DNA of 64,000 bases from an uncultured Bacilli bacterium (GTDB taxonomy: Bacteria > Bacillota_I > Bacilli_A > RF39 > UBA660). Positions 1,629 to 54,439 of the stretch are shown in pieces. Made by a program: the position numbers and the translations under genes. Position 1 is the stretch's first letter, and every line of letters starts with the position of its first letter. The notes under the pieces were generated by a model. It did no database searches. It worked only from the letters and a program-made list of their open reading frames with translations, and was not told where the DNA came from. The stretch spans positions 3,273-67,272 of the forward strand of contig CANQKX010000004.1 of NCBI GenBank assembly GCA_947624565.1, in the 5' to 3' direction.

Positions 1629-2014
1629 ATCGAAGTTGTAATATTCTACGCTGTAAATGTAACAGCTTGCTAAGCTATCATATTAATATATAAAAAATAT
1701 CTAAATTACTAGGAAATTATATGAATTACGTATTTGTAACTTAAATACTTTCATTTCAACTATTGAGGTAGAGAATAAGTTGAAACTATTCATTACATTA
1801 ATTGATAGCTCACACAAGTTGTCATATTACTATACGAAATTAATTAGAGAAATTACAAAAAAGTATCAAAAAATTATTATTTTCATTAATTCTACTATAA
1901 AATCTTCACTAAAAAATACTCAAATCAAAATTTCAAAAACGTTTCTTGGCCCTACTTGGTTATACTTTTGAACAAGCATAAAATATGCTAAAAAGCATTT
2001 TATTAGTTCTGTGT

Positions 2015-2046
2015 GTATTCTCTTATTTAGATTTAAATGTTATAAT
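2015..2046 (+). promoter_or_regulatory. Putative sigma-A promoter with extended -10 for the methyltransferase gene
   Basis: The sequence tgtTATAAT (TG at 2038-2039, TATAAT at 2041-2046) sits ~30 nt upstream of the GGAGG SD at 2066-2070. Confidence 0.4.
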
Positions 2047-2077
2047 ATCCATTGAATTAGGAAATGGAGGAATGCTA

Positions 2078-8437: not shown

Positions 8438-8461
8438 ACAATCACCCAATACCATTATACC

Positions 8462-8499
8462 AAAAAAAAATGTATTTTCTATAAAAATACACTTTTTTT
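8462..8499 (-). terminator. Rho-independent terminator downstream of the recombinase gene
   Basis: The hairpin tgtatttt-ctata-aaaataca is flanked by an A9 run on one side and a T7 run on the other. Confidence 0.5.
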
Positions 8500-10156: not shown

Positions 10157-11254
10157 CTACCTTATTGTATATGGGTTTTCTAAACTTCCATCTCCTGAAT
10201 TGTATATAGATAAATTATCAATGTATATAACAGGATACAATGAAAAACTAGCAGAGGCTCTTACTAAATCTGCAACACCATTATTTACAAGATATACTTG
10301 GTATGTATTATCCGCTGAAGCAGTTATTGTTCTCATAGAAGAACTAATATTTTTCATATAATTATAATTTATACATGCTTTATCATTAATAGTTTTACAA
10401 TTTGGATCAATACTAGCTCTACTATATTCACTTAATTGAATTATACTAATTTTTTGATTTGGATATTGTTGTTGACATTCTGATGCACCATCAATACTTA
10501 CATCTGTTTTTGTTCTTTTTCCAATACAAATATCATGTTCAACAATTTTATTTTTCTCTTCTTCTGTAAAAAATTCAACATCTTCAAAAACTTCTTTTAA
10601 ACTATCCTTTAGTCTACTTTTAGAAAAATCATTTATTCCATCATCTTTATCTCTTTCAACATTGTACCTATCATCCCATACTACTTGATCTATATATCTC
10701 TCAGTTGATATTAATTTTAATTCTCCTTTTTCATTTATTTCGATAATTCTATAAATTCTATTTCCTAATTTAATGTAATTATTTGGATCTTCTCCTTTAA
10801 ATACATACTTTTCACCCATTTTATATAATCCATCTTCATTTACAATTTCAACATAATTATCTAATATATAATCTGATATTTTCTTTGTTTCATAATATTT
10901 ACCACATTTTACATATGGAACATAATCATAATTTCCTTCTTTATTTATTATTTGTACATAACCACTACATTTAATATTACTATCTTCAATTGCAAATAAA
11001 TCTTTCATATACTTTTCATTAACTAATGTGTCAATATTTACTTTTGATATTTCTCCATTATTTTTTGGAATTAATTTCTTATTGTCATTAAGATATTTTT
11101 TTGTTGTCAATACCAAATTACTTTCCATATTAGAATAACTTGAACTACTTTTTACATTTTTACCTCCAAAAAAGACAACAATTACAACAATAGCAATTAT
11201 AAAAACTACAACTATTGTTAGTATTTTTAAAATATTTTCTCTAATAAATCCCAT
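10157..11254 (-). CDS. Hypothetical membrane-anchored extracellular protein
   Basis: The N-terminus is a single TM helix (ILKILTIVVVFIIAIVVIVVFFGG). Several Cys residues lie in the ectodomain. The protein ends GDGSLENPYTIR, a G-x-x-E-N-P-Y motif like the one preceding each GLUG-type module in the 29736..32699 protein. Confidence 0.45.
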   Translation of the reverse strand: MGFIRENILKILTIVVVFIIAIVVIVVFFGGKNVKSSSSYSNMESNLVLTTKKYLNDNKKLIPKNNGEISKVNIDTLVNEKYMKDLFAIEDSNIKCSGYVQIINKEGNYDYVPYVKCGKYYETKKISDYILDNYVEIVNEDGLYKMGEKYVFKGEDPNNYIKLGNRIYRIIEINEKGELKLISTERYIDQVVWDDRYNVERDKDDGINDFSKSRLKDSLKEVFEDVEFFTEEEKNKIVEHDICIGKRTKTDVSIDGASECQQQYPNQKISIIQLSEYSRASIDPNCKTINDKACINYNYMKNISSSMRTITASADNTYQVYLVNNGVADLVRASASFSLYPVIYIDNLSIYNSGDGSLENPYTIR

Positions 11255-11298
11255 TATAAATCCCTACCTTTTCTTAATTATAACACATTAAATAAATA

Positions 11299-11323
11299 AA
11301 AAAAAGCACTATTGCTTTTTTAT
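11299..11323 (-). terminator. Rho-independent terminator downstream of the SPFH gene
   Basis: The hairpin aaaaaagc-actatt-gctttttt is AT-rich. Confidence 0.35.
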
Positions 11324-11325
11324 CA

Positions 11326-12207
11326 TTAATCTTTTTTTAATAATTCACTAGCAGTTGTTAACATTCCTGCCATATTTTGCATATCAGATGGAATAATAAT
11401 CTTTGTTGATTGACCATTTGCTACTTTTTCAAATGTTTCAAATGATTTTAATGTAAGTACTGAACTATCAGCCTTTGCATCTTTCAATAATTTTATACCA
11501 GCAGCTGTTGCTTCTTGCACCTTAAGTATTGCTTCTGCTTCACCTTCTGCAAGTTTAATTTGTGATTCTTTTTGTGCTTCTGCTCGTAATATTGCACTTT
11601 CCTTTTCACCTTCTGCAATAAGTATACTTGATTTTTTCTCACCTTCTGCTTGAAGAATTTTTTCTCTTCTTTCTCTTTCTGCTCTCATTTGTTTTTCCAT
11701 TGCTTCTTGAATATCTCTAGGAGGAATTATATTTTTAACTTCTACACGATTTATTTTAATTCCCCATGGATCTGTTGCTTCATCAAGTATCATACACATC
11801 TTACTATTAATTAAATCCCTAGATGTTAATGTTTCATCAAGTTCAAGATCACCTATTATATTTCTAAGTGTTGTTGCAGTTAAATTTTCAATAGCGTTAA
11901 TTGGATTTTCAACACCATAAGTATATAATTTTGGATCTGTAATTTGAAAATAAACTACTGTATCAATTTGCATTGTAACATTATCTTTTGTAATAACTGG
12001 TTGTGGTGCAAAATCACGTACCTTTTCTTTTAATGATACATTATTTGCAATTCTTTCTATAAATGGAATTTTTATATGTAAACCTGTTTGCCAAGTTGCA
12101 TTATAACTTCCAAGTCTTTCTATAACATAAGTTTTTGATTGTGGAACAATCTTAATATTTAATATTATAATAACTATCAATAATATTAATAATATAATTA
12201 TAAGCAT
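11326..12207 (-). CDS. SPFH/band-7 (stomatin/HflC-like) membrane protein
   Basis: The N-terminus is a TM helix. A stomatin-like core is present (YVIERLGSYNATWQTGLHIKIPFIERI...), followed by an Ala/Glu-rich coiled coil. Confidence 0.8.
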   Translation of the reverse strand: MLIIILLILLIVIIILNIKIVPQSKTYVIERLGSYNATWQTGLHIKIPFIERIANNVSLKEKVRDFAPQPVITKDNVTMQIDTVVYFQITDPKLYTYGVENPINAIENLTATTLRNIIGDLELDETLTSRDLINSKMCMILDEATDPWGIKINRVEVKNIIPPRDIQEAMEKQMRAERERREKILQAEGEKKSSILIAEGEKESAILRAEAQKESQIKLAEGEAEAILKVQEATAAGIKLLKDAKADSSVLTLKSFETFEKVANGQSTKIIIPSDMQNMAGMLTTASELLKKD

Positions 12208-12210
12208 AAA

Positions 12211-12624
12211 TTATCTCTCCTTTTCCTTAACTATAACTTTGGCACCCTCTATTTTTATTATTTCAACAATAGTGCCTTCTTTAATTTCAGTTTTAGATGT
12301 TGCCATCCAATCTTTACCATCTACTTTAACTCTACCATTTTCATTTTTCTTTATGTCTTTTGTAACAATACCTTCTTTACCGATAATTACATCAAAATTT
12401 GTCTTTACAATATTTTTCTTAATATATTTATCAAATATTGGTTTTGTAATTATTAATGATAATATTGTTGTAATTGTAAATACAATTAACTGAATAACTA
12501 TATTATTAGTAAAATAAGTACTTATAAAAGCACATAAACTACCAAATGCGAACCATATAGTAACTAGATTAAGCGTAAGTGATTCAAATATTAAAAATGC
12601 AAATATTAGTATAAACCAAATCAT
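12211..12624 (-). CDS. NfeD-family membrane protein (short form, partner of the SPFH protein)
   Basis: Two N-terminal TM helices are followed by a C-terminal OB-fold-like beta domain (GKEGIVTKDIKKNENGRVKVDGKDWMATS). Its stop overlaps the SPFH start (ATGA). Confidence 0.7.
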   Translation of the reverse strand: MIWFILIFAFLIFESLTLNLVTIWFAFGSLCAFISTYFTNNIVIQLIVFTITTILSLIITKPIFDKYIKKNIVKTNFDVIIGKEGIVTKDIKKNENGRVKVDGKDWMATSKTEIKEGTIVEIIKIEGAKVIVKEKER

Positions 12625-12693
12625 AGTAGTACCTCCTTTAAATAATTATATGACCAAAACAATATAAAAAGCAAGAAAAAAATAGACAAAAGT

Positions 12694-13113
12694 CTATTTA
12701 TTTAATAAATCTAGTAAATTTATTTTAAACATGTCCTTATCAGCATTTTCTTTACTAATCATAACACCTTTATATGCACCTAATTCTGTAGCATGACCTT
12801 CTAAGAATAAATCTTCTGGATCAATAGTTTTAAGTAAAATTATATTTTTATTTGTATATACATCATAGTGAAGTACTATTTCTCCATGAACTTTAGTAAA
12901 TAATTCATCTGCAGGTAAAACTAATTCATATGAAACGGTATTTTTATCTGCATTTTCACTTATTTTTTCTCCTAAAAAAATTCCATCCTTCATTTTAGGA
13001 TAAAAATCAAAAATTAATTTTTTAAAGGCAAACATGTTATACTTCTTTACAGAACGTTCACACTTTTTAAATTTTTGTTCATCTAAATATTCAAATATGT
13101 AATTTTCTTTCAT
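12694..13113 (-). CDS. Hypothetical protein (139 aa)
   Basis: The ORF contains a weak RelE/ParE-like stretch (GEIVLHYDVYTNKNIILLKTID). No firm family assignment was made. Confidence 0.35.
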   Translation of the reverse strand: MKENYIFEYLDEQKFKKCERSVKKYNMFAFKKLIFDFYPKMKDGIFLGEKISENADKNTVSYELVLPADELFTKVHGEIVLHYDVYTNKNIILLKTIDPEDLFLEGHATELGAYKGVMISKENADKDMFKINLLDLLNK

Positions 13114-15871: not shown

Positions 15872-15956
15872 CTACTTAAATATAATTATATCATGAAAAT
15901 TTGATTTATTTTTATTTTTAGTTATAATATTAATCAATTATTTTGGGGGTTATTAT

Positions 15957-26717: not shown

Positions 26718-26828
26718 CCTAACTTCAATATAATTATATCAATTTTTTAATTACTAATAAATAAGAAAAAAGAAAAAAATTAATTTTATTTCTTATAGTT
26801 TATGTTCTTTTAAAATAAATATCTTATT

Positions 26829-29735: not shown

Positions 29736-32699
29736 TTATTTTTCTACTACATATATTCCTTTTTTACTATCTACATAATCAAAATAGTATCCTGTATTAT
29801 TAACATCTCCATTATTTTTTGTTTCTACTTTATCTGTATAAAATTCCAAATTTCCTATATTATCTGATGAGAATCCATCTGTTTGTGATGTACCATTTAT
29901 AACAACTTTATTGGAATAATACCCTCCAATTGGTTCTCCACCAGTAATTATGCCAAAATTACTACCTGCCGTTAACTTTCCTCCTTCTACTATTCTTGAT
30001 GTATTATAACTGTAAGTTAATCCATATATAATTCCTACATAATCTTGGCCTGTTACATTTGCTTCTATTATTATATTTGGAGTTTCAACATATGAATCAG
30101 TACTTCCTACTAATCCTCCTACACAGTTATTCCCTATTATATTGGAATTTCTTATTACTATTTCTCTTGCTGTCGACCATGCATATGGACTTGCTCTACC
30201 TAATACACCGGCTAATCCTCCTACATTATCTTTTCCTGTTACATTTATATTCTCTATGTTTAAGCCTACCAATTCTCCTGTAATCATATATCCTACTATT
30301 CCTATGTTATCTACTTTTGATGCATGTATTGTTACATTATTTATTGTCTTTGCTCCTCCATCTAATGTTCCAGTAAGTTGATTGTAATAACTTCCAAGCA
30401 TATAAAATTTATTATTACTAAAGTTTAAATCATTTTTTATTTTATATACTTTATTTAGTTGTAAAGTTGCTGTCTTCCAATCTTTCTCATTTTCTATTAA
30501 ATATGGTTCTTCTTTTGTTCCTTGTCCTTTTAAATTGATGTCCATTGGATTTTTTTCTACACTCTTTAAAATTATTTCTCCTTTATCATCATAATCAAAA
30601 TAATATCCTGTGGAGTTATTATCTCCTCCTATCCATGTATCTAATCCTGCTGCTTCATAAAAGTTTATATCATTTAAATCTGTTTCATAATTAAATCCAT
30701 CACCTTGGTGCACTTCATTTATAGTAACTTTATTGGAATAATACCCTCCAATTGGTTCTCCACCAGTAATTATGCCAAAATTACTACCTGCCGTTAACTT
30801 TCCTCCTTCTACTATTCTTGATGTATTATAACTGTAAGTTAATCCATATATAATTCCTACATAATCTTGGCCTGTTACATTTGCTTCTATTATTATATTT
30901 GGAGTTTCAACATATGAATCAGTACTTCCTACTAATCCTCCTACACAGTTATTCCCTATTATATTGGAATTTCTTATTACTATTTCTCTTGCTGTCGACC
31001 ATGCATATGGACTTGCTCTACCTAATACACCGGCTAATCCTCCTACATTATCTTTTCCTGTTACATTTATATTCTCTATGTTTAAGCCTACCAATTCTCC
31101 TGTAATCATATATCCTACTATTCCTATGTTATCTACTTTTGATGCATGTATTGTTACATTATTTATTGTCTTTGCTCCTCCATCTAATGTTCCAGTAAGT
31201 TGATTGTAATAACTTCCAAGCATATAAAATTTATTATTACTAAAGTTTAAATCATTTTTTATTTTATATACTTTATTTAGTTGTAAAGTTGCTGTCTTCC
31301 AATCTTTCTCATTTTCTATTAAATATGGTTCTTCTTTTGTTCCTTGTCCTTTTAAATTGATGTCCATTGGATTTTTTTCTACACTCTTTAAAATTATTTC
31401 TCCTTTATCATCATAATCAAAATAATATCCTGTGGAGTTATTATCTCCTCCTATCCATGTATCTAATCCTGCTGCTTCATAAAAGTTTATATCATTTAAA
31501 TCTGTTTCATAATTAAATCCATCACCTTGGTGCACTTCATTTATAGTAACTTTATTGGAATAATACCCTCCAATTGGTTCTCCACCAGTAATTATGCCAA
31601 AATTACTACCTGCCGTTAACTTTCCTCCTTCTACTATTCTTGATGTATTATTATTAACGGTTGAACCATATATAATTCCTACATAATCTTGGCCTGTTAC
31701 ATTTGCTTTCGCTATTATACTTGTAGTTTCAACATATGAATCAGTACTTCCTACTAATCCTCCTACGTAGTTATTCCCTGTTATATTGGAATTTCTTATT
31801 ATTATTTCTCTTGCTGTCGACCATGCATATGGACTTGCTCCTAATACACCTACTAATCCTCCTACATTATCTTTTCCTGTTACATTTATGTTCTCTAGGT
31901 TTAATCCTACTATCTCCCCTGCACTCATGTGTCCAAATAATCCTACATTATCATCATTTGGCAAATTTATTGTTAAATTACTTATTGTTTTTGCTCCTCC
32001 ATCAAATTTACCTTTAAATGGATTTTCTGCAGTTCCTATTGGTTTAAAACTTTCTTCTCCACATGTGTTTTTATTATCACTCATGTCTAAATCATTTCTT
32101 AGTTTTATTACTTTTCCTTCATATGATGTCCCATTATTTACATCTCTTGATAATTTATATAAATCACTTACTGAATCTATATATAATGTTACTTTATCTT
32201 CATCTTCTTCTAATTCACATGGTTTTTTATCTGTGATTGGTTTTTCTTCTTCTATTACACATTTAAATCCTTCATCTGTTGATCTTCCTACTTTTACACC
32301 TTTTTCATTTTCGTTTTTTATCGCACACCATTTCTTATTCTTACTTACTAATTTTTCTACTATTACATTTTTATTTTCTAATAGTGTTAAACTTCCACTA
32401 CTTGGTTTATCTCCCTTAAATTTTAATAATCCTACTTCATTTTCATTTATTTGTACTGTATCTTTCCCATTTTCTCCATATATATACTCTATTGGTAGAC
32501 TTCTTGCTTCTCCTTTTATATCATCTAATTCATACTGCATTTTTGCTGTATGTACCATTAATTCTACACTTTCTTTATATGCTTGCATTTCTGCTTTTTC
32601 TATAACATCTAATACTTTTGGTACTGCCAATACCATTATTATTGCTAGTATTACTATAACCGCTAGTAACTCTATTAATGTAAATCCTTTTTTCTTCAT
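29736..32699 (-). CDS. Large surface protein with a type IV prepilin-type N-terminal cleavage/methylation signal and three tandem GLUG-like beta-helix repeat modules
   Basis: The N-terminus is MKKKGFTLIELLAVIVILAIIMVLAVPKV, a class III signal of the G-F-T-L-I-E type. The ~274-aa modules contain GGLVG/GGLAG motifs, each preceded by a G-T-x-E-[NE]-P-[YF] motif. Upstream lie an extended -10 (tgaTATACT) and an AGGAGAA SD. Confidence 0.7.
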   Translation of the reverse strand: MKKKGFTLIELLAVIVILAIIMVLAVPKVLDVIEKAEMQAYKESVELMVHTAKMQYELDDIKGEARSLPIEYIYGENGKDTVQINENEVGLLKFKGDKPSSGSLTLLENKNVIVEKLVSKNKKWCAIKNENEKGVKVGRSTDEGFKCVIEEEKPITDKKPCELEEDEDKVTLYIDSVSDLYKLSRDVNNGTSYEGKVIKLRNDLDMSDNKNTCGEESFKPIGTAENPFKGKFDGGAKTISNLTINLPNDDNVGLFGHMSAGEIVGLNLENINVTGKDNVGGLVGVLGASPYAWSTAREIIIRNSNITGNNYVGGLVGSTDSYVETTSIIAKANVTGQDYVGIIYGSTVNNNTSRIVEGGKLTAGSNFGIITGGEPIGGYYSNKVTINEVHQGDGFNYETDLNDINFYEAAGLDTWIGGDNNSTGYYFDYDDKGEIILKSVEKNPMDINLKGQGTKEEPYLIENEKDWKTATLQLNKVYKIKNDLNFSNNKFYMLGSYYNQLTGTLDGGAKTINNVTIHASKVDNIGIVGYMITGELVGLNIENINVTGKDNVGGLAGVLGRASPYAWSTAREIVIRNSNIIGNNCVGGLVGSTDSYVETPNIIIEANVTGQDYVGIIYGLTYSYNTSRIVEGGKLTAGSNFGIITGGEPIGGYYSNKVTINEVHQGDGFNYETDLNDINFYEAAGLDTWIGGDNNSTGYYFDYDDKGEIILKSVEKNPMDINLKGQGTKEEPYLIENEKDWKTATLQLNKVYKIKNDLNFSNNKFYMLGSYYNQLTGTLDGGAKTINNVTIHASKVDNIGIVGYMITGELVGLNIENINVTGKDNVGGLAGVLGRASPYAWSTAREIVIRNSNIIGNNCVGGLVGSTDSYVETPNIIIEANVTGQDYVGIIYGLTYSYNTSRIVEGGKLTAGSNFGIITGGEPIGGYYSNKVVINGTSQTDGFSSDNIGNLEFYTDKVETKNNGDVNNTGYYFDYVDSKKGIYVVEK
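29895..31640. repeat. Perfect or near-perfect 822-bp tandem direct repeat (~2.1 copies) inside the prepilin/GLUG gene; a third, diverged copy extends to ~32030
   Basis: Antisense shadow ORFs 30059..30283 and 30881..31105 give identical translations (offset exactly 822). The same holds for 30142..30381 and 30964..31203. Direct reading shows identity from ~29895 to ~31640. Confidence 0.85.
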
Positions 32700-32769: not shown

Positions 32770-34605
32770 TTACTCAACTACATAAACTCCATAATTATCT
32801 TTTTTATCAATATTTTTCTTTACTATTAAATAAATTTTTTTATCGTTTAAATTTATTTTAACTGATGATAATTCTAAATTATTTAGTTTTTTTATTTGAT
32901 CTGTTTTATAATTTAATATTTTTACATATTTATCTGCAGTATTGTTTATTATAATTCCTCTATATGGTTGAACTTCTTTTCCTGATTCATCATTTAATGT
33001 TTCATTTTCTTTAAGTTTATATTTATATGTTTTATCTTTATTTATATTATATATATTTATAATATTATTTTTTATATATATATAATTTTCTAAATTAGCA
33101 ACAAAGTAATCATTACTATTAACATTAATTATTTTTTTACCATTTTTATTTAATATTATTATACTATCATTTTTATCTTTATATCTATATAAAATATCAT
33201 TGTTAATTTTAATAATAGATACTTTATTATCACTTAACAATTTTTCTTTTTTCGCTGAATATATTGATAATGAACTAGTTGGTTCTTGCCCTATAACTAA
33301 TTTTTTATCACATATTGCAATATCATTATTTGATTGAAATAATATTTTATTTTTCTTATCATATAATATATATTTATTTGAATTATTATATTTTATTACT
33401 TTATACCCACCATCATAACCTGTATAACTATATATAGTTTGATTTTTCTTTGTTTCAAAAACTTTCTTATTTTCACCTAAATTATATATAATAGATTTTT
33501 TATTATTACATGAATTTTTTAAACATGTTAACTTAAAATAATATTCATTATTATTTGACTTTAATTTATCTATAGATAAACGAGCATAACCATTATCTTT
33601 TTTATAATTATATATTTTTTCATATTTATTATTTTTTGTATTAAGTACACCTGCTGAATTTTCTTTTTTATTATCTACTAAAATATATTTTTGATTTTTT
33701 TCATATACACTTTCTTCATATAAATCATATGTTTCTAAATCTAATTGTTTTGTTAACTCTTCAATATAAAGTTCACTTTCTAATCTTTTTTGTTTACCAT
33801 TTTCAAGTAATGTATATTTAATATTTTTATTATCAATTATAGTATAACTTAAATCTTCATTTATAATATAACTATTAAAACTATTTCCAATTATTTTCTC
33901 TTTATCTAAACTAAAATAATTATAATTATTCTCTTTTTCATTTTTTAAAATAAAGAAGTCATTATTTTCAGATACTTTAGATATACTATAATTATCTAAT
34001 ATTTTATTTGCTTTTTTATCTAATAAAATATAATTATCATCAATTTTAATTTGTATATATTTTTTATCTAAATATGATTTAATATCAGAAATATTTTCAT
34101 ATATTATTTTTCCTTTTTTATCTAGTAATGTATATAAATTTTTTTCTTTATTAAACATTGATATAACATTATCATTTATGATAGTTAGTTCATTTATTGT
34201 TTCATATATAATATCACCATTTTTATCTCTAACAGAATAATTTATAATATTTAATTTTGAATCAACTAATTTTGAAATATAATAATCATCACCTATTTGC
34301 ACAGGAATTTGTTTAGTTTCATTCTTATTTTCCTTATAATCTGCTACTTTCTTACCATCATTATTATATATTAATGATTCATTTTTTTCTTTAACTATAA
34401 AACCATTACAAAATTCATCTATACATTCAACATCATCATACTTTACACTTAAAATCTTTCTAACACCAGATATACTATCTTCATCTTTAAATTTAATAAA
34501 TGCAAGATGTCCCACTACAACTATAAAAAATATTATTACAATAGTAATTACTATTTTTAATATCAATGATTTATTTATATTATTAATTTTATTTTTTGTT
34601 GTCAT
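32770..34605 (-). CDS. Membrane-anchored repetitive extracellular protein (hypothetical)
   Basis: The N-terminal TM anchor is LILKIVITIVIIFFIVVVGHLAFI. Degenerate ~25-30 aa repeats rich in K/N/Y/I follow (LDKKGKIIYENISDIKSY, LDKKANKILDNYSISK...). They resemble WG-type beta-propeller repeats but lack the WG motif. Confidence 0.45.
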   Translation of the reverse strand: MTTKNKINNINKSLILKIVITIVIIFFIVVVGHLAFIKFKDEDSISGVRKILSVKYDDVECIDEFCNGFIVKEKNESLIYNNDGKKVADYKENKNETKQIPVQIGDDYYISKLVDSKLNIINYSVRDKNGDIIYETINELTIINDNVISMFNKEKNLYTLLDKKGKIIYENISDIKSYLDKKYIQIKIDDNYILLDKKANKILDNYSISKVSENNDFFILKNEKENNYNYFSLDKEKIIGNSFNSYIINEDLSYTIIDNKNIKYTLLENGKQKRLESELYIEELTKQLDLETYDLYEESVYEKNQKYILVDNKKENSAGVLNTKNNKYEKIYNYKKDNGYARLSIDKLKSNNNEYYFKLTCLKNSCNNKKSIIYNLGENKKVFETKKNQTIYSYTGYDGGYKVIKYNNSNKYILYDKKNKILFQSNNDIAICDKKLVIGQEPTSSLSIYSAKKEKLLSDNKVSIIKINNDILYRYKDKNDSIIILNKNGKKIINVNSNDYFVANLENYIYIKNNIINIYNINKDKTYKYKLKENETLNDESGKEVQPYRGIIINNTADKYVKILNYKTDQIKKLNNLELSSVKINLNDKKIYLIVKKNIDKKDNYGVYVVE

Positions 34606-34656: not shown

Positions 34657-36231
34657 TTACTTTATAACACCTATTATATTGCCATTTACTACATCTATAT
34701 TTAAGTAATTAGAATTTTTTGATAATCCAGGCATAGTAATAACATTTCCAATATATATAACTATAAACCCTGCTCCGTTTTTTATTTTTACATCTGTAAT
34801 TGTCATATCAAAATCTTTAGGATATCCTAAAAATTTAGGATTGCCTGTTATTGAAGTAGGATTTTTTGATATACATATAGGTAAATTTTTGAATTCACTA
34901 TTATTTATATAATCTAATTTTTCTTTTATATCATTATTTATAATAACATTTTTAGCATGAAGTAAATCTTTACATAAAATATTTATTTTCTTATATATAT
35001 CATCATTTAAATTATATAACTCTTTTGAAATTATATTATTTTCACACATTTTAATAATTGTATTTGCTAAATTAATAGATTTATCTAATGAATCACTATA
35101 AAGATAACTAATTTCAAAAGGTACATTAAGTTTTTTACAAAAATCTTGTATATATTTAATATCTTCATCAGCATCACTTTCAAATTTATTTAAAACAACT
35201 AAAATATTATTTGAAAAGTTTTTCATGTTTTCAATATGAAATTGTAAATTAGATATACCTTTTTGTAAATCATTATCTCCATTATATTTTAAAGATTGTA
35301 TTGTTGCATTAATAATTACTAAATTTGGATATACATTAAGTTTTCTTTCTTTTATATCAAAGAATTTAATCGCACCCATATCACTACCAAAACCAGATTC
35401 TACAATTGTATAATCACATAATTTTAATGCATAATTTGTTGATATCAATGAATTACATCCATGTGCTATATTAGCAAATGGACCACCGTGTATAATCGCA
35501 GGATTATTATATAAAGTTTGAACTATATTAGGTTTAAAGGCATGTTTTAAAAGGGCAAGGATAGAACCTGTACAATTTAAATCTTTAACATATATAATTT
35601 TATTATCTATTGTATAACCAACTATAATATTATCAATATTTTTTCTTAAATCTTCCATATCTTTTGAAAGACAAAAAACACTCATTATTTCAGATGCCGC
35701 TGTTATATCAAATTTTTCTTTTCTATCAATATTATTTAAATATATACTTCTAAGTGCTCTATCATTTATATCAATACATCTATTAAAAAATATCCTGTTT
35801 TTATCCAAATTAAGTTCATTTCCTTGATATATATGATTATCAATTATAGAACATATTAAATTATTAGCACTTGTTATCGCATGAATATCTGAAGTAAAAT
35901 GAAGATTTATATCTTCTTCAGGAACTACCTTTGATTTTCCCCCTCCAGTTGCTCCACCTTTAACTCCAAATACTGGTCCCAAAGATGGCTCTCTTAATAC
36001 AACTATACTTTTTTTATTTACATAATTTAGTAAATCGCATATTCCTATTGAAAGAGTTGTTTTACCCTCTCCATATTTAGTTGGACTTATTGATGTTACT
36101 AGTATAAGTTTACCATTTTTATTTTTTATATTAGATAAATCAGTATCTATTTTTGCAATATATTTTCCGTAATGATATAAATCATCACTATTTAGATTTA
36201 TTTTTTTAACAACTTCATCTATATTAATCAT
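34657..36231 (-). CDS. fhs: Formate--tetrahydrofolate ligase
   Basis: The P-loop is PTKYGEGKTTLSIGI. Length and overall architecture are Fhs-like. Confidence 0.85.
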   Translation of the reverse strand: MINIDEVVKKINLNSDDLYHYGKYIAKIDTDLSNIKNKNGKLILVTSISPTKYGEGKTTLSIGICDLLNYVNKKSIVVLREPSLGPVFGVKGGATGGGKSKVVPEEDINLHFTSDIHAITSANNLICSIIDNHIYQGNELNLDKNRIFFNRCIDINDRALRSIYLNNIDRKEKFDITAASEIMSVFCLSKDMEDLRKNIDNIIVGYTIDNKIIYVKDLNCTGSILALLKHAFKPNIVQTLYNNPAIIHGGPFANIAHGCNSLISTNYALKLCDYTIVESGFGSDMGAIKFFDIKERKLNVYPNLVIINATIQSLKYNGDNDLQKGISNLQFHIENMKNFSNNILVVLNKFESDADEDIKYIQDFCKKLNVPFEISYLYSDSLDKSINLANTIIKMCENNIISKELYNLNDDIYKKINILCKDLLHAKNVIINNDIKEKLDYINNSEFKNLPICISKNPTSITGNPKFLGYPKDFDMTITDVKIKNGAGFIVIYIGNVITMPGLSKNSNYLNIDVVNGNIIGVIK

Positions 36232-36239
36232 ATTATGAC

Positions 36240-37280
36240 CTACCTTTTCATTATTTCTTTTATATATTTGCCACTTTCAGATAAATATTTATCATCCAAA
36301 CTATCTATAGGAGATCCTTCTAATAATAAAGCAGAAGATTCATTTTTATCAGATAAAGACCAGTTAGCCCAAGAAATATTATTTTCATCCATAAAATCTA
36401 CCCATTTATTTGCTTCTTGTAAATAAACTCCACCATTACCTGATGCATCACTTACTCCCCATTCACTTACAAATATAGGTATTTTATTTATTGCTTCTTT
36501 TACTCTTTGCCTTAAATCATCTTTATGTGTACCTGCATAAAAATGAAATGCATACATTACATTTTTATCATTAATTGGATCTATCATAGGTTTATCTACT
36601 TCTTGACTCCATGTTGGTGTCCCAACTATTATAATGCTATTTTTACTATTTTTTCTTATTACATCAATAACTTCATTAGCATATGGTTTTATTGTTTCAC
36701 TCCATGTAACATTAGAATTTGGCTCATTACATATTTCATAAATAACATTTGGATAATCTTTATATTTACTACTCATTCTACTAAAAAAATCTTTTGCCTC
36801 CTTTATATATGTTAAAGGATTATTATCACTTAATATATGCCAATCAATTATTACATACATATCTAATTTTATTGCCGTATCTACAATTTTTATTACATCA
36901 TTTTCTAAATTTCTATTTTCAATATATCCACCCTCAGCAGTATACATTGCTATTCTAAATAAATTACTATTCCACTCATCTCGTAATTTTTTTATCATTT
37001 CTTCATTAGCAAATTTACCATACCACTGAATACCATGTGTACTCATTCCTTTTAATTGAATCTTATTACCTTTTTCATTTACAAGAGTATTATTCTTTAT
37101 TTCTAACCATCCATTAGAACTAACTAAATTATTATCAATAGTAGTACTTGATTGCACATCTTTTTTAACGTCTTGTTTATTACTTTTTTGATTATTATCC
37201 TTTTTTAAGTACAAAAATCCAATAACTACAATTAAAGAAATAATTATAAATAATAATATTTTTTTCATATTTATCACCAT
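36240..37280 (-). CDS. Secreted glycoside hydrolase family 5 endoglucanase (cellulase)
   Basis: A signal or TM helix sits at the N-terminus. The GH5 catalytic acid lies in the NEP context (YEICNEPN) and the nucleophile region is VSEWGVSDASGNGG. Confidence 0.8.
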   Translation of the reverse strand: MVINMKKILLFIIISLIVVIGFLYLKKDNNQKSNKQDVKKDVQSSTTIDNNLVSSNGWLEIKNNTLVNEKGNKIQLKGMSTHGIQWYGKFANEEMIKKLRDEWNSNLFRIAMYTAEGGYIENRNLENDVIKIVDTAIKLDMYVIIDWHILSDNNPLTYIKEAKDFFSRMSSKYKDYPNVIYEICNEPNSNVTWSETIKPYANEVIDVIRKNSKNSIIIVGTPTWSQEVDKPMIDPINDKNVMYAFHFYAGTHKDDLRQRVKEAINKIPIFVSEWGVSDASGNGGVYLQEANKWVDFMDENNISWANWSLSDKNESSALLLEGSPIDSLDDKYLSESGKYIKEIMKR

Positions 37281-37285
37281 ATTGA

Positions 37286-37324
37286 TTATAACAAAAAAGA
37301 TGATATATTTCTATATCATCATGG
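37286..37324 (-). terminator. Palindromic terminator-like repeat, copy 1, downstream of the TraG-like gene
   Basis: The sequence is ttataacaaaaaaGATGATATAtttcTATATCATCatgg. Its perfect 9-bp arms are followed on the minus strand by a T6 run. It is near-identical to the copy at 38953..38990. Confidence 0.5.
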
Positions 37325-37436
37325 AACTAATTTTAATACTTTCACATCTTTATTTTCATATTCATTCTTTAATTGATTATATAAATATAATTTTAAATAA
37401 TTTAAATCAATTTGTAATCTAATAATTTTTTGTAAC

Positions 37437-38489
37437 TTATTCATTATTTAGTTTATCCATAAAATTAAAGTAATGATTTTTTTTATTTTCTAATATTGGA
37501 TAATCATTATAATCTCCAACATTTATTAATGGATAATCTCCTTGTTTTATTTCTATTTGATATTCAAATTTATCTACAAAAAATTCACCATATATCTTAT
37601 TTATACTTTCTATATTTCTTGATATAACGTAAATTTTTTGATTATTAGATATTGCATTTTCAAGTAAATCATCTAAGTACTCTATTCTTGTAAAAATATC
37701 AAAATTATCAATAATATAATTAAATGAAATGTTATTTTTTCTTGACACTTTTGAAACTTGATTTAAAAGTATATTAGTAAATCTATTATACTGAGAATTA
37801 CTAATTATAAATATTGCTGTTTTATTATCTAACTTACTTAAATCTATTTCATTACTGCATAATAAATTTAATAAATTTTCACTTGTAACATATTTATTTA
37901 ATTCTGTTTTTAATACAGATATAATACCACTTCTAGTTTCTACTGGTGAAAGTGCAGTTGGTGATAAGAATGTATATTCTGGACTTGTTAAATCTAGGTT
38001 ATTAATATATTGCTTTAATTCTGCATAATTTTTATTTGATTGTTCTGTTTGAGAAATCATTACTTGAACACTAGCTAAATTTATTTCTTCTTCTTTTGCT
38101 TCTTTAAATAATAATAATATAATTCCTGTTAAATAATCTGATGCACAATTACCCCAGAAAGGATCTATTGCAAAATCATTTTTCATAAGTTCATATGAAA
38201 AGTTTTTAATTAAACTAATAGCCATATCTTTCTTATTATCTTTATATAATTTATATGGTAATAATAAAGGATTAAAACCATTTGATTTTGATGCATCTTT
38301 ATAATTTATTACATATACATTATATCCATTTTCTTTTAACTTTTTTCCAAAAGTTTTATAATATTCTTCTTTATTATCAACAATTAACATATTCTCATTT
38401 TTACTTATTATATTTTTTACTTCATTAAACATTAATCCTGTAGTTTTTCCTACAGATGTTTTTCCTAAAATTAAATTTGTATTTTTCAT
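37437..38489 (-). CDS. Soluble TraG/VirD4-like (type IV coupling protein family) P-loop ATPase, lacking the N-terminal TM domain
   Basis: Walker A is LILGKTSVGKTTGL. Conserved T4CP blocks are LIVDNKEEYYKTF...GYNVYVINYKDASKSNGFNPL and DPFWGNCASDYLTGIILLL. Walker B is like YIIDNFDIF. The downstream QKIYVISRNIESINKIYGE matches the T4CP QS..QL..YG motif. The protein is only 350 aa. Confidence 0.6.
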   Translation of the reverse strand: MKNTNLILGKTSVGKTTGLMFNEVKNIISKNENMLIVDNKEEYYKTFGKKLKENGYNVYVINYKDASKSNGFNPLLLPYKLYKDNKKDMAISLIKNFSYELMKNDFAIDPFWGNCASDYLTGIILLLFKEAKEEEINLASVQVMISQTEQSNKNYAELKQYINNLDLTSPEYTFLSPTALSPVETRSGIISVLKTELNKYVTSENLLNLLCSNEIDLSKLDNKTAIFIISNSQYNRFTNILLNQVSKVSRKNNISFNYIIDNFDIFTRIEYLDDLLENAISNNQKIYVISRNIESINKIYGEFFVDKFEYQIEIKQGDYPLINVGDYNDYPILENKKNHYFNFMDKLNNE

Positions 38490-38490
38490 T

Positions 38491-38883
38491 TTATATCTCC
38501 TTCTTTTTCATTTTTATTTGATTTTCTTTTATTATTTTATTTTCTAAAATAATTTTACCACCTACTATATTACTTCTTAAATAGTCAATTTCTCTTATTT
38601 TTTCTTCAAATAAATTTATATGTTTTAATAATTCTTCTTTTTTCTTAAGCATAGTATCATTAGTAAAATTATTCCAATTTTCCTTTATTTCTTCTAAAGA
38701 AAAACCTACCCTTTTTAAACTTAATATTAAATTTAAATCATTTATTTGATCATCACTATAATACCTATATCCTGTGAATAAATCAATTTCGACAGGTTTA
38801 AATAGATTTATTTCATCATAATATCTAAGTGTTTTAACTGGTACATTAGTTTTCTTAGAGAAATCACCTATTTTATATAACAT
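38491..38883 (-). CDS. MerR-family transcriptional regulator
   Basis: The N-terminal MerR HTH is YKIGDFSKKTNVPVKTLRYYDEINLFKP, followed by a coiled coil. Its stop lies 1 nt from the TraG-like start, implying an operon. Confidence 0.7.
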   Translation of the reverse strand: MLYKIGDFSKKTNVPVKTLRYYDEINLFKPVEIDLFTGYRYYSDDQINDLNLILSLKRVGFSLEEIKENWNNFTNDTMLKKKEELLKHINLFEEKIREIDYLRSNIVGGKIILENKIIKENQIKMKKKEI

Positions 38884-38952
38884 TTTCCCTCCTTCTTTTT
38901 GAGTATAACATTACAGTTAACTGGAAAGTCAAGATGTTAAAATCTTTAATAA

Positions 38953-38990
38953 TTATAACAAAAAATATGATATATTTCTATATCATATAT
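38953..38990 (-). terminator. Palindromic terminator-like repeat, copy 2, overlapping the 3' end of sod
   Basis: The sequence is ttataacaaaaaaTATGATATAtttcTATATCATATat. About 33 of 38 nt match copy 1. Confidence 0.5.
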
Positions 38991-39586
38991 ATACTATTAT
39001 ATCTATTATTTACAACATTAAAATCAAGTATAAAAAATAAATTTCTAATATATTCTTTCTTATCTGTTTTATATTGAAGATAATATGAATGTTCCCATAC
39101 ATCTATTACAAGTAATGGAATAAAATCTATTAAAGTAAGTTCCTGATGTTTTTCAATTTGAATTATTAATAATTTATCTAAATATTTATCATAACCAAAT
39201 ACTACCCAACCAGGTCCTTCTATATTTAACAAAGATGCATTTAATTCATCAATAAATGCATCATATGAACCAAAATCTTTTTTTATATGATTAACAAGTT
39301 CATTACTTAGTAAAGTCTTATTAGGCATTGGAGTTAAATTTTCAAAAAACAATCCATGAAGTATGTAAGCATTTGCGTTAAATGATAATCTTTTAGATAA
39401 ATTTTGTATGTTACTAAAATCACTATTTTTTCTATTATTATTAAATTCATCCATTATTTTATTTAAGTTATCAGTATAACCTTTATATAATGTATTATAA
39501 TGATAATTAAACATATTACTGTCATAATAAGGTTCTAAATCTTTATAATTATACTTTAATTTCTTCATTTCATACATAAATTTCAC
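38978..39586 (-). CDS. sodA: Fe/Mn superoxide dismutase
   Basis: The N-terminus is LPYAYDALEP-like (YNYKDLEPYYDSNMFNYHYNTLY). The C-terminal metal-binding motif is DVWEHSYYLQYKTDKKEY. Confidence 0.85.
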   Translation of the reverse strand: MKFMYEMKKLKYNYKDLEPYYDSNMFNYHYNTLYKGYTDNLNKIMDEFNNNRKNSDFSNIQNLSKRLSFNANAYILHGLFFENLTPMPNKTLLSNELVNHIKKDFGSYDAFIDELNASLLNIEGPGWVVFGYDKYLDKLLIIQIEKHQELTLIDFIPLLVIDVWEHSYYLQYKTDKKEYIRNLFFILDFNVVNNRYNSIYMI

Positions 39587-39628
39587 CTAATAAAATATAT
39601 GAAATATATTTATTAACTTGATAAAATA

Positions 39629-40744
39629 TTAATTTTTTAATTGATTATAAACAATATCAAAACATCTTAAAAATTCATCTAGTTCATCTTTTGTAGTTAA
39701 ATGTGATAGACTTATTCTAAGTGATGATGCTGATCTTTGTTCATCTTTAGTAAGAGCATATATAACTTTTGAAATATTTTTATCACTTGAACAAGCTGAT
39801 TTTGTACTAATATATATATCATAATCTTCTAATTTACTTGCAAATTCTTTAGAATTAATACCTTTAATAGATATATTTAATGTATTATATATTGATTTAT
39901 CAGTACTATTAAAATATACATCAGGATACTTTGATAATTTATCTTTTAAATATTTATTTAAATCTTTTATATATTCATTATTTTTATCCATATTATTAAG
40001 TGCTAATTCTAAAGTCTTTTTTATAGATAAAATTAAAGCTAATGCTGGAGTACCACTTCTATATTTACTTGTACTTTTTCCTCCATGAATAATAGGTAAT
40101 AATTTAACATTATCTCTTTTTATTAAAACACCTACTCCATTTATACCATATATTTTATGAGTTGCAAATGTAATCATATCTACATTTTCAAAATTAATAT
40201 TTACTTTACCTATTGCTTGTGTTGCATCTGTATGAAAAACAACATTATCATATTTTTTTAGTACTTTAGCTATTTCTTCAATATCTAAAACTATACCTGT
40301 TTCACTTTCAACACATGTTATACTTACTAGTGTTTTTTTGTCATCTATTAAACTTTCTAAATTATTAATATCAATTTGTCCATTTTCATTAACAGGTAAT
40401 ATATCAATATTATAGCCTTTTGATAATAGATAATTACATGGTGAAATTATAGATGAATGTTCTATTTCAGTAGTAATAATATGACAATCCTTATTAAGTT
40501 CTGCAAAACCTTTTATTACTAAATTATTTGATTCTGTTGAACCACTTGTATATATTACATCATCAATATTGCATTTAAAAATATCAGCAATATATTTTGT
40601 AGTTTCATCTATTTTCTCTTTTGCTTCTATACCTAATTTGTGTGAAGAATTAGGATTTGCGTAATATAAAATACTATTTAAGTTAAAATCTTCTAATACT
40701 TTTTTATCTACAGGACAATTAGCTGCATAATCTAAATATACCAT
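39629..40744 (-). CDS. Cysteine desulfurase (class V aminotransferase, NifS/IscS-like)
   Basis: The PLP-lysine region is FATHKIYGINGVGVL. The catalytic Cys loop is STKSACSS. Confidence 0.8.
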   Translation of the reverse strand: MVYLDYAANCPVDKKVLEDFNLNSILYYANPNSSHKLGIEAKEKIDETTKYIADIFKCNIDDVIYTSGSTESNNLVIKGFAELNKDCHIITTEIEHSSIISPCNYLLSKGYNIDILPVNENGQIDINNLESLIDDKKTLVSITCVESETGIVLDIEEIAKVLKKYDNVVFHTDATQAIGKVNINFENVDMITFATHKIYGINGVGVLIKRDNVKLLPIIHGGKSTSKYRSGTPALALILSIKKTLELALNNMDKNNEYIKDLNKYLKDKLSKYPDVYFNSTDKSIYNTLNISIKGINSKEFASKLEDYDIYISTKSACSSDKNISKVIYALTKDEQRSASSLRISLSHLTTKDELDEFLRCFDIVYNQLKN

Positions 40745-46418: not shown

Positions 46419-46572
46419 ATATACTCTCCTATACTATAAACAAATTATATCATAATATAATATCTAACATATGATTAATTACATTAACTTTACATATATT
46501 TTTTTTAAATAATAAACATATAACCCTAACATTTTTTTATTTTTTCAATATTATATTATGAGGTAAAATATT

Positions 46573-52242: not shown

Positions 52243-52301
52243 ATTATCACTACTTTCTAAATAAATTATATCATAAAAAAAATAAACTTTTTAGTTTATT
52301 T

Positions 52302-54279: not shown

Positions 54280-54439
54280 CTTACCACCTCAATACCTTTT
54301 CTTCATTTATTATAACATTTTTACAAAAATAAAAATAGTAAATTTTTACTATTTTTAAAGATTAAAACCCCTTTTGTGAGTTTTTACAGTAGTAAGGAGT
54401 GTTCAGCGATTTCTTCTTCATAAACTCTCATATTTTATT

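Follow-up and report, generated by a model that had tools for sequence, protein, structure and literature searches.

Type IV coupling proteins (T4CPs; VirD4, TraG, TrwB and Cag-beta; Pfam PF02534) are held to serve conjugation and type IV secretion exclusively, as their substrate receptors and motors, and a membrane anchor is usual but not universal among them. Here, we describe a three-gene operon encoding a MerR-family regulator, a T4CP-like P-loop protein of 350 aa (called the ATPase below) and a 41-aa open reading frame (ORF). It lies in a 64-kb stretch (contig CANQKX010000004.1, assembly GCA_947624565.1) from an uncultured Bacilli bacterium, and this whole stretch is referred to as the window. 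Two described groups of coupling proteins come close to the ATPase. TraJ of plasmid pIP501 is a known T4CP without a transmembrane (TM) domain (PMC4981023), and the CD1115 family consists of soluble VirD4-like proteins of Firmicutes.

The ATPase is like T4CPs in its Pfam match, two-domain fold, Walker A, NPL and DPFW motifs, but it has no TM anchor, carries Asn for the catalytic Glu, does not conserve the sensor Gln and lacks the TraG-D_C region. It also sits in a chromosomal housekeeping setting with no type IV secretion system (T4SS) or relaxase context seen, and it is mostly paired with a MerR protein. It is a T4CP homologue by sequence and fold that fails the catalytic, C-terminal and genomic-context criteria of a working coupling protein. 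The pIP501 system is alike in that a soluble T4CP has a small interacting DNA binder of MerR fold, TraN (PMC4981023), but TraN is a two-helix-turn-helix (HTH) internal dimer and represses at oriT, whereas the MerR protein here is of the coiled-coil dimer type at a promoter with a 19-nt spacer. The CD1115 family provides both the best NCBIfam match and the best plasmid relative, yet the ATPase is at most 27% identical to it and scores 103 against a cutoff of 250. TraJ and CD1115 proteins carry DE or DD in Walker B and belong to tra operons on conjugative plasmids, whereas the ATPase carries DN and is chromosomal.

On the regulator side, the activators of the BmrR, Mta and CueR type share the HTH, wing and coiled-coil and a promoter with a 19-nt spacer and centred dyad. 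In contrast to these, the MerR protein here has neither a C-terminal ligand-binding domain nor metal-binding Cys, and its gene is the first of the regulated operon, partnered with a T4CP-like NTPase. MerR-family regulators with operon-encoded protein partners include GlnR and TnrA with glutamine synthetase and HspR with DnaK. These are likewise short regulators without a small-molecule domain, cotranscribed with a protein that feeds back on them; here the partner is instead a T4CP derivative, and feedback is proposed by analogy. Our literature searches found no description of a MerR protein paired with a T4SS-DNA_transf protein, and other literature searches gave nothing relevant. As far as checked, the combination of MerR with a TM-less T4CP-like protein is undescribed, as the initial annotation of the locus had stated, and it is widespread.

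An Ancient Chromosomal Operon

All genes in the 34- to 43-kb part of the window are on the minus strand, and three of them make up the operon:

38491-38883, minus strand: merR, MerR-family regulator of 130 aa (Pfam and NCBIfam)
37437-38489, minus strand: T4CP-like TM-less P-loop protein of 350 aa, the ATPase (Pfam, NCBIfam and fold)
37319-37444, minus strand: 41-aa ORF, called in relatives and with conserved motifs

The ATPase gene starts 1 nt past the merR stop codon, and its Shine-Dalgarno (SD) sequence, GGAG, lies within the last merR codons, so the translation of the two genes is coupled. The 41-aa ORF overlaps the ATPase stop codon by 8 nt. The initial annotation had described a two-gene operon, and its two genes were borne out, but the third had been overlooked.

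Comparison with relatives shows an old operon that has been passed on vertically in the chromosome and is characteristic of uncultured gut Bacilli of low GC content, and not a cassette inserted between the repeats that bracket it. We identified 78 full-length relatives of the ATPase (331-363 aa, 37-88% identity), all from metagenomes or metagenome-assembled genomes (MAGs). A scan with one genome per GTDB species gave 36 loci, and all came from uncultured gut 'Bacilli', 'Tenericutes', 'Mycoplasmatota', Clostridium sp. CAG:433 or Ca. Coprosoma. Directly upstream of the ATPase gene, merR was found in 40 of 43 loci; among the 36 species representatives, the number was 33. Apart from one locus, the two genes are separated by -20 to +21 nt. 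In the relatives with 88%, 71% and 59% identity, merR, the ATPase gene and an ORF of 38-50 aa are constant while the flanks change. Neighbors across relatives include topoisomerase III (topoIII), ABC-F and PolC; ArgRS; SecG and RNase R; and rpoBC and rpsL-fusA-tuf, the linkage to topoIII and PolC being limited to the close clade. The window order of topoIII...cysteine desulfurase-sodA-merR-ATPase recurs, without the hairpin shared by the window repeats, in two loci whose ATPase is 52% identical, L011 and L042 (the latter from Clostridium sp. CAG:433), and the sodA-merR junction is therefore ancestral. The neighboring genes in the window are as follows:

42838-40757, minus strand: topoIII
40744-39629, minus strand: cysteine desulfurase
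38978-39586, minus strand: sodA, Fe/Mn superoxide dismutase, upstream neighbor (Pfam Sod_Fe_C 97.6 bits, Sod_Fe_N 61.8 bits)
36240-37280, minus strand: glycoside hydrolase family 5 (GH5) cellulase gene, downstream neighbor (Pfam Cellulase 223.6 bits)

One proposal of the initial annotation was that a small insertion had copied the sodA terminator into a target-site or attachment (att) repeat; the shared order in the 52% relatives speaks against this. The empty site that such an insertion should have left was seen in no relative. Nucleotide identity to the closest locus, L001 (88% ATPase identity), is 87.4% for the sodA block and 87.8% for the operon block; the two are equally diverged, with no sign of a recombination tract that has the repeats as its limits. 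Neither the genes called in the annotated loci (5-7 kb flanks) nor the ten largest ORFs of the window included an integrase, tRNA, relaxase or T4SS gene; those ten ORFs encode HsdM, PPDK, PolA, PheT, PolC and similar housekeeping proteins. The window contains no tRNA or tmRNA gene and thus no tRNA-type att site. No relatives of the ATPase were found on IMG/VR viral contigs, and those in the phage collection and on plasmids reached at most 27% identity, the best on plasmids being CD1115-family T4CPs from conjugative Bacillus, Listeria and Clostridium plasmids.

The second proposal, a relic of a conjugative element reduced to its coupling ATPase, holds as to T4CP descent but not as to decay, given the kept length, the low ratios of nonsynonymous to synonymous divergence (dN/dS of 0.1-0.4) and the large TM-less clade. 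Against L001, dN/dS was 0.11 for merR, 0.38 for the ATPase gene and 0.10 for the small ORF. ATPase length is conserved among relatives, and the GC content of the operon is like that of its flanks (0.17-0.22).

A Coupling-Protein Clade without Membrane Anchor or Catalytic Glutamate

The ATPase matched Pfam T4SS-DNA_transf (PF02534) over residues 7-252 with 65.3 bits (cutoff 20.1), in agreement with the initial assignment to the T4CPs. The best NCBIfam match was the VirD4-like CD1115-family equivalog NF045973 (1.2e-29), but its 103.4 bits are below the cutoff of 250. The TraG-D_C model (PF12696), also suggested for checking, gave no match to the ATPase at E ≤ 1, whereas it was present in the relatives P0079-P0082. 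The absence of a TM domain was confirmed: no hydrophobic segment was found, with a maximal KD19 of 1.11 vs. 2.6-3.5 in relatives with DE in Walker B. We predicted the structure (AF2 model, pLDDT 92.3, pTM 0.90), and a Foldseek search gave Cag-beta (8dol) and TrwB (1e9r) as the best matches (probability 1.0, TMq 0.56-0.67), followed by VirB4 and HerA. A profile search of Protein Data Bank sequences had no match at E ≤ 1, the link to Cag-beta and TrwB coming from the fold search alone. According to the model, both the RecA-like nucleotide-binding domain and the all-alpha domain of T4CPs are kept, and it is in the latter that many invariant positions of the family alignment are found.

The motifs are kept unevenly. 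Walker A reads GKTSVGKT (residues 9-16, 38442-38465), with G14 and K15 invariant in 35 sequences, and DPFW (38154-38165) and NPL are kept as well. Walker B is degenerate, YIIDNFD at 37698-37718, with D261 and N262 conserved in at least 90% of sequences; with IIDNFD at this place, an Asn replaces the catalytic Glu. The sensor position is variable and the sensor Gln not conserved. The CD1115-type relatives have DD or DE at the Walker B column. Among the T4CP blocks listed in the initial annotation, Walker A and DPFW thus stand, while Walker B is altered and QS..QL is absent, the sequence reading ISRNIESINKIYGE.

To place this change, we surveyed Walker B and TM segments in 229 relatives, a profile search of 1.84 billion representatives with the ATPase family having given 6048 matches, 622 of them below 1e-30. 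DN was found in 155 of the 229; these proteins have 330-640 aa, start at residue 1-15 and lacked a TM segment in all nine checked. The 39 with DE are mostly 570-940 aa long with an N-terminal extension of ~145 aa, and 9 of 10 checked had an N-terminal TM segment. In a neighbor-joining tree, 151 of 153 DN sequences fell into one clade of 169, the exceptions inside it being mostly DG, DS and DD, with only two DE. This near-monophyly indicates that the catalytic Glu was lost once and has not been under selection to return. Walker B Glu-to-Gln mutants of other P-loop ATPases offer an analogy for nucleotide binding without hydrolysis. By that analogy, the DN proteins would bind nucleotide with little or no hydrolysis and would be switches rather than pumps. 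No natural fusion of MerR and ATPase was found among the 229 relatives. PADLOC gave no significant match for the ATPase (mad8, E 0.01, 13 bits), and PHROGs gave none for the ATPase or the small ORF.

Longer DN proteins (long forms, 414-563 aa) are encoded in MAGs that carry the annotation 'Tenericutes bacterium' or 'Bacilli bacterium'; here, merR is directly upstream in ~40 of 56 loci and overlaps the ATPase gene by about 32 nt. In one of these (L121:5625-7673), a module of a 135-aa MerR, a 479-aa ATPase and an acidic 71-aa ORF lies between rpoB-rpoC and rpsL-rpsG-fusA-tuf, and in another lineage the module is beside rpsP, a KH-domain gene and PPDK. Three long forms (P0113, P0085 and P0166) have the DN-type core fused C-terminally to NUDIX, SUKH-1 (SMI1/KNR4) and DUF4272 domains. 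In a subclade (L050-L068, L077 and L100), the ATPase gene is followed by genes for an ADP-ribosylglycohydrolase, a radical SAM/SPASM enzyme and a large Zn-ribbon protein, and often preceded by HTH_36 and XRE-like genes; these neighbors may be a linked accessory or conflict gene set. Overall, this is a large, near-monophyletic and uncharacterized T4CP clade without membrane anchor or catalytic Glu, coupled to MerR in most loci examined. Its members carry generic database names, 'type IV secretory system conjugative DNA transfer family protein', a label that would wrongly flag conjugative elements in surveys of the MAG mobilome.

The third gene is less widely shared. The 41-aa ORF (outline MNKLQKII...YLYNQL...DVKVLKLVP) is conserved in the clade with an ATPase identity of at least 52% and in L023, L034 and L049, with the motifs YLYN and VKxLxL conserved. 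Small ORFs after the ATPase gene in relatives have 38-57 aa and are limited to some clades. The product showed no detectable similarity to CagZ.

The MerR Regulator and Its Promoter

The product of merR matched Pfam MerR_1 (64.4 bits), MerR (43.3 bits) and MerR-DNA-bind (29.6 bits, cutoff 25.4), which upholds the initial family call. The protein consists of HTH, wing and coiled-coil with a basic C-terminal tail, and has no Cys and no effector domain. For residues 3-69, the best match was the BmrR DNA-binding domain (E 1.8e-17), and MtaN, EcmrR and CueR came next; the NCBIfam metal-sensor equivalogs all scored far below cutoff.

About 20 nt upstream of the merR start codon, we found a promoter of the MerR type, with the sequence TTGACT-TTCCAGTTAACTGTAATGT-TATACT:

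38902-38932, minus strand: MerR-type promoter P2, with -35 box TTGACT (38927-38932), 19-nt spacer and -10 box TATACT (38902-38907)

A dyad, ACTTTCCAGTT|AACTGTAATGT (38908-38929), is centered in the spacer, and 9 of its 11 positions are complementary. An overlong spacer with a centered dyad is the hallmark of MerR-family promoters such as those of bmr, zntA and copA. P2 is unique in the window, where no further MerR operators were found. The pattern TTGACn-19 nt-TAnnnT was present upstream of merR in 58 of 82 merR-linked loci, in comparison with a background of 0.012 per 200 nt. The promoters comprised 31 distinct sequences whose arms vary between lineages yet stay palindromic, for example CTCTAGTTAACTAGAG (perfect, L030), GCAGTCAACTGC and ACGTTAACGT. 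With such a promoter ahead of merR, the operon is predicted to be under MerR-type autoregulation. In five of eight close-clade sublineages, the -35 box is preceded by a TGnTATAAT box at a distance of 20-26 nt, which suggests basal read-in into the operon.

Among L001-L049, the MerR protein usually ends with K.K[ST][LI][FY] in lineages without the small ORF. In lineages with it, MerR lacks that ending and the small protein ends with VKVLxL or KVLTLY. We considered whether the MerR tail and the small-ORF C terminus are one interchangeable motif for docking to the ATPase. The distribution is complementary but confounded by clade, and the idea is also contradicted by Coprosoma-type loci without tail or compensation and by an unrelated small ORF in the long-form clade, which leaves it a weak lead only.

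Flanking Repeats as Border Modules

The initial annotation had reported near-identical palindromic repeats of ~38 bp at both ends of the operon. These were recovered as copies at 37286-37322 and 38953-38989 that bracket merR, the ATPase gene and the 41-aa ORF; in extended form (37280-37319 and 38947-38986), they match over 40 nt with 93% identity, whereas shuffled sequences predict 0.00 such matches. The 19-nt core TGATATATTTCTATATCAT is identical in both. A search for further copies, which the annotation had suggested, gave no other good copy in the window (16-nt core, at most 2 mismatches), and Rfam had no match within 36000-40000. As had also been noted, the inverted repeat has the form of a minus-strand terminator: each copy gives a 9- to 10-bp AU-rich hairpin (-9.6 and -8.4 kcal/mol), followed by UUUUUU and then by GUUAUAAU. 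Beyond what had been noted, each copy carries an extended -10 promoter box, TGTTATAAT:

38947-38989, minus strand: repeat copy 2, with hairpin 38966-38987 (sodA terminator), T-run 38960-38965 and extended -10 box TGTTATAAT 38952-38960
37280-37322, minus strand: repeat copy 1, with hairpin 37299-37320 (operon terminator), T-run 37293-37298 and extended -10 box TGTTATAAT 37285-37293

The reported overlap of one copy with the end of sodA was correct, the sodA stop codon (38978-38980) lying inside the hairpin of copy 2. The hairpin of copy 1 in turn overlaps the stop of the small ORF. The box in copy 2 is a candidate constitutive upstream promoter, P1, of the merR operon, and the one in copy 1 is the predicted promoter of the GH5 gene. 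The probable start of that gene is the ATG at 37268, with the SD sequence GGTGA. The GH5 gene is not at this position in L006 and L011 and is a variable flank outside the unit; a formate-tetrahydrofolate ligase gene comes after it in minus-strand order.

The history of the hairpin differs from that of the operon. A diverged copy 2 is at the same place in the 88% relative, and the copy-1 hairpin is also found 3' of the small ORF in the 88% and 71% relatives. Only this species and its 88% relative have the shared hairpin at both borders; the 71% relative (L005) has the downstream copy only, and L006 to L011 have other hairpins instead. The hairpins of L011 are different, yet an identical 16-mer, CTTTTTTTGATATAAT, is present at both of its operon borders, and for this reason we regard the repeats as functional border modules. 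The right half of the repeat is not special to the locus. The sequence TTTTTTGnTATAAT has one further occurrence in the window, the T-run with TGnTATAAT has a third at 8454-8467, and TGnTATAAT boxes are found 10-25 nt 5' of many start codons, for example on the minus strand at 26733-26741, 15885-15893, 46444-46452, 52265-52273 and 54309-54317. Boxes so close to the starts imply that very short mRNA leaders are the norm in this genome of ~20% GC. The commonness of the box and the third occurrence together mark the right half of the repeat as the ordinary arrangement of terminator tail plus promoter in this organism, and only the 19-nt identical hairpin core needs a copying event. The local duplication of the hairpin part took place in the ancestor shared by this species and its 88% relative. 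The ~38-nt repeats are border modules of the operon, made up of an intrinsic terminator hairpin, a T-run and an extended -10 box, and they illustrate that flanking direct repeats can be duplicated terminator-promoter modules rather than att sites.

In the 88% relative (L001; also L002 and L040), the 5' edge of the upstream hairpin copy is the exact site of a 1061-bp segment (L001:4440-5540), which corresponds to ~38985 of the window. The segment contains a 286-aa ORF without Pfam match, its own TTGACA promoter and its own terminator, and it is flanked by hairpin-like direct repeats, TATAAATATATCATC past the sodA stop and TATAGAAATATATTATC ahead of the merR promoter. The segment is either an insertion there or was deleted between hairpin copies in the window lineage. 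Whichever its origin, the hairpin looks recombinogenic.

Possible Function of the MerR-ATPase Pair

We consider it fairly probable that the operon is autoregulated and that its exapted, probably nonmotor, nucleotide-binding T4CP derivative works with the MerR protein. In such a mechanism, a MerR dimer on the dyad would repress or activate its own three-gene transcript by distortion of the spacer, with basal read-in from the upstream extended -10 box adding to the MerR-controlled transcription. Translational coupling would keep the T4CP derivative in a fixed ratio with MerR. It would act as a nucleotide-bound and possibly DNA-bound switch, not as a DNA pump, and would supply in trans the sensing or effector function that the domain-less MerR lacks. 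The small protein could modulate it as CagZ does Cag-beta; according to the title of the structure entry (8dol), the ATPase of this T4CP is under the control of a small partner. Here, the parallel is an analogy only.

Several observations weigh against this reading. The case for an interaction between MerR and the ATPase is indirect, coming from co-occurrence and translational coupling, and merR is absent in L038, L039 and L041, in L080-L082 and in L123. (The loci L038, L039 and L041 are next to dacB-spmAB-like genes.) The acidic residue at position +3 of Walker B (DNFD) is mostly conserved and could serve as a substitute catalytic base, in which case hydrolysis would be possible. The single operator in the window does not define a regulon beyond the operon, and a regulator controlling just itself and its partner leaves the output unexplained. 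Variable C-terminal domains and an ATPase that evolves faster than its MerR are more typical of conflict systems. In addition, dS estimates at about 20% GC are unreliable past the closest pair, and the T4SS screen covers only the annotated loci and the ten largest window ORFs.

The long-form C-terminal domains and the subclade neighbors keep a conflict-system reading alive, and we regard as unlikely a defense, abortive-infection or toxin-antitoxin-like module in which MerR is antitoxin-like and the NTPase senses invading DNA (phage, plasmid or relaxosome) or is a dominant-negative decoy coupling protein. A compact, overlapping and autoregulated operon with the DNA binder encoded first would fit it, as would the faster evolution of the ATPase, the variable NUDIX, SUKH-1 and DUF4272 domains, the ADP-ribosylglycohydrolase, radical SAM/SPASM, HTH_36 and XRE-like neighbors and a match of the MerR protein to PADLOC mad1 (E 1e-11). 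However, inheritance is vertical and syntenic at core positions (rpoBC/rpsL, topoIII/PolC) while defense islands are usually patchy, relatives are missing from viral contigs, and those on plasmids are remote only. The one named defense system considered, MADS, was rejected: it needs MAD6, MAD7 and MAD8 in one operon and has been reported mainly from Proteobacteria and Actinobacteria (bioRxiv 10.1101/2023.03.30.534895), whereas only the generic regulator mad1 was matched here, with mad8 at an insignificant 13 bits and no mad2-7 genes. A role in DNA handling for chromosome biology (segregation, decatenation or repair), with MerR as a site-specific DNA adaptor like RacA and an FtsK/T4CP-like partner, seems to us rather improbable. 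T4CPs do belong to the FtsK/HerA superfamily, VirB4 and HerA are among the Foldseek matches, topoIII and PolC are nearby in the close clade, and the all-alpha domain, the DNA- and substrate-binding part of T4CPs, is rich in invariant residues; but a translocase is hard to reconcile with the loss of the catalytic Glu across the clade, the MerR site is an operator of the canonical kind embedded in a promoter and not a centromere-like array, and the topoIII/PolC linkage does not extend beyond the close clade.

There is little to favor the view that the ATPase is a functional coupling protein of a T4SS whose genes lie elsewhere in the genome, with a partner bringing it to the membrane as TraI does for pIP501 TraJ. 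TM-less T4CPs do exist, TraJ (PMC4981023, PMC12857230) and the CD1115 family on conjugative plasmids, the MerR-fold TraN binds TraJ in a two-hybrid assay (PMC4981023), and the Pfam T4CP model is matched above threshold. Against this stand the DN in Walker B, where true T4CPs have DE or DD, the missing TraG-D_C region, the score of 103 against the CD1115 cutoff of 250, the lack of any T4SS or relaxase gene called within 5-7 kb in annotated loci or among the ten largest window ORFs, and a constant partner that is MerR and not a relaxase. A recent small insertion bracketed by duplicated terminator or att repeats, or a decaying conjugative relic, we hold to be very improbable. The 38- to 40-nt direct repeat at both ends, the T4CP ancestry and the seemingly recombinogenic hairpin (with the 1061-bp segment and its 286-aa ORF at the hairpin edge in the 88% relative) point that way, but no relative has an empty site, the 52-59% relatives have the operon at the same place without the repeat, GC matches the flanks, purifying selection and conserved length are evident, and there is no recombinase or tRNA gene.

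Returning to the autoregulated MerR-ATPase operon, a more specific form of it can be put forward only tentatively, and we think it doubtful as it stands: that a branch of VirD4/T4CP proteins without TM anchor and catalytic Glu has been exapted in uncultured 'Tenericutes-like' gut Bacilli and serves in trans as the sensor or effector subunit of an activator of the MerR type that is itself domain-less. If true, it would be a new two-protein transcription switch, in some clades a three-protein one, derived from a conjugation motor. The branch persists as a stably inherited gene of the chromosome, which in one lineage lies inside the rpoBC/rpsL-fusA region. Should the partnership with MerR be real, it would present a testable case of a conjugation ATPase recruited to transcription control or DNA sensing.

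Other Features of the Window

Three further genes are of note. At the start of the window (1985-4264, plus strand) is a gene for a type I restriction-modification HsdM-like N6-DNA methylase. A 987-aa protein (29736-32699, minus strand) carries a pilin-type methylation motif (N_methyl) at its N terminus as the only Pfam match, and the stretch holding it has a GC content of 0.29-0.33 vs. 0.15-0.25 around it. The third gene (32770-34605, minus strand) encodes a protein of a 611- to 673-aa type with an N-terminal hydrophobic segment and no Pfam match. Homologues with 40-45% identity are found downstream of the operon in the close clade (L006:7237-9258 and L011:~10942-12819), and in L006 the gene comes directly after the operon.

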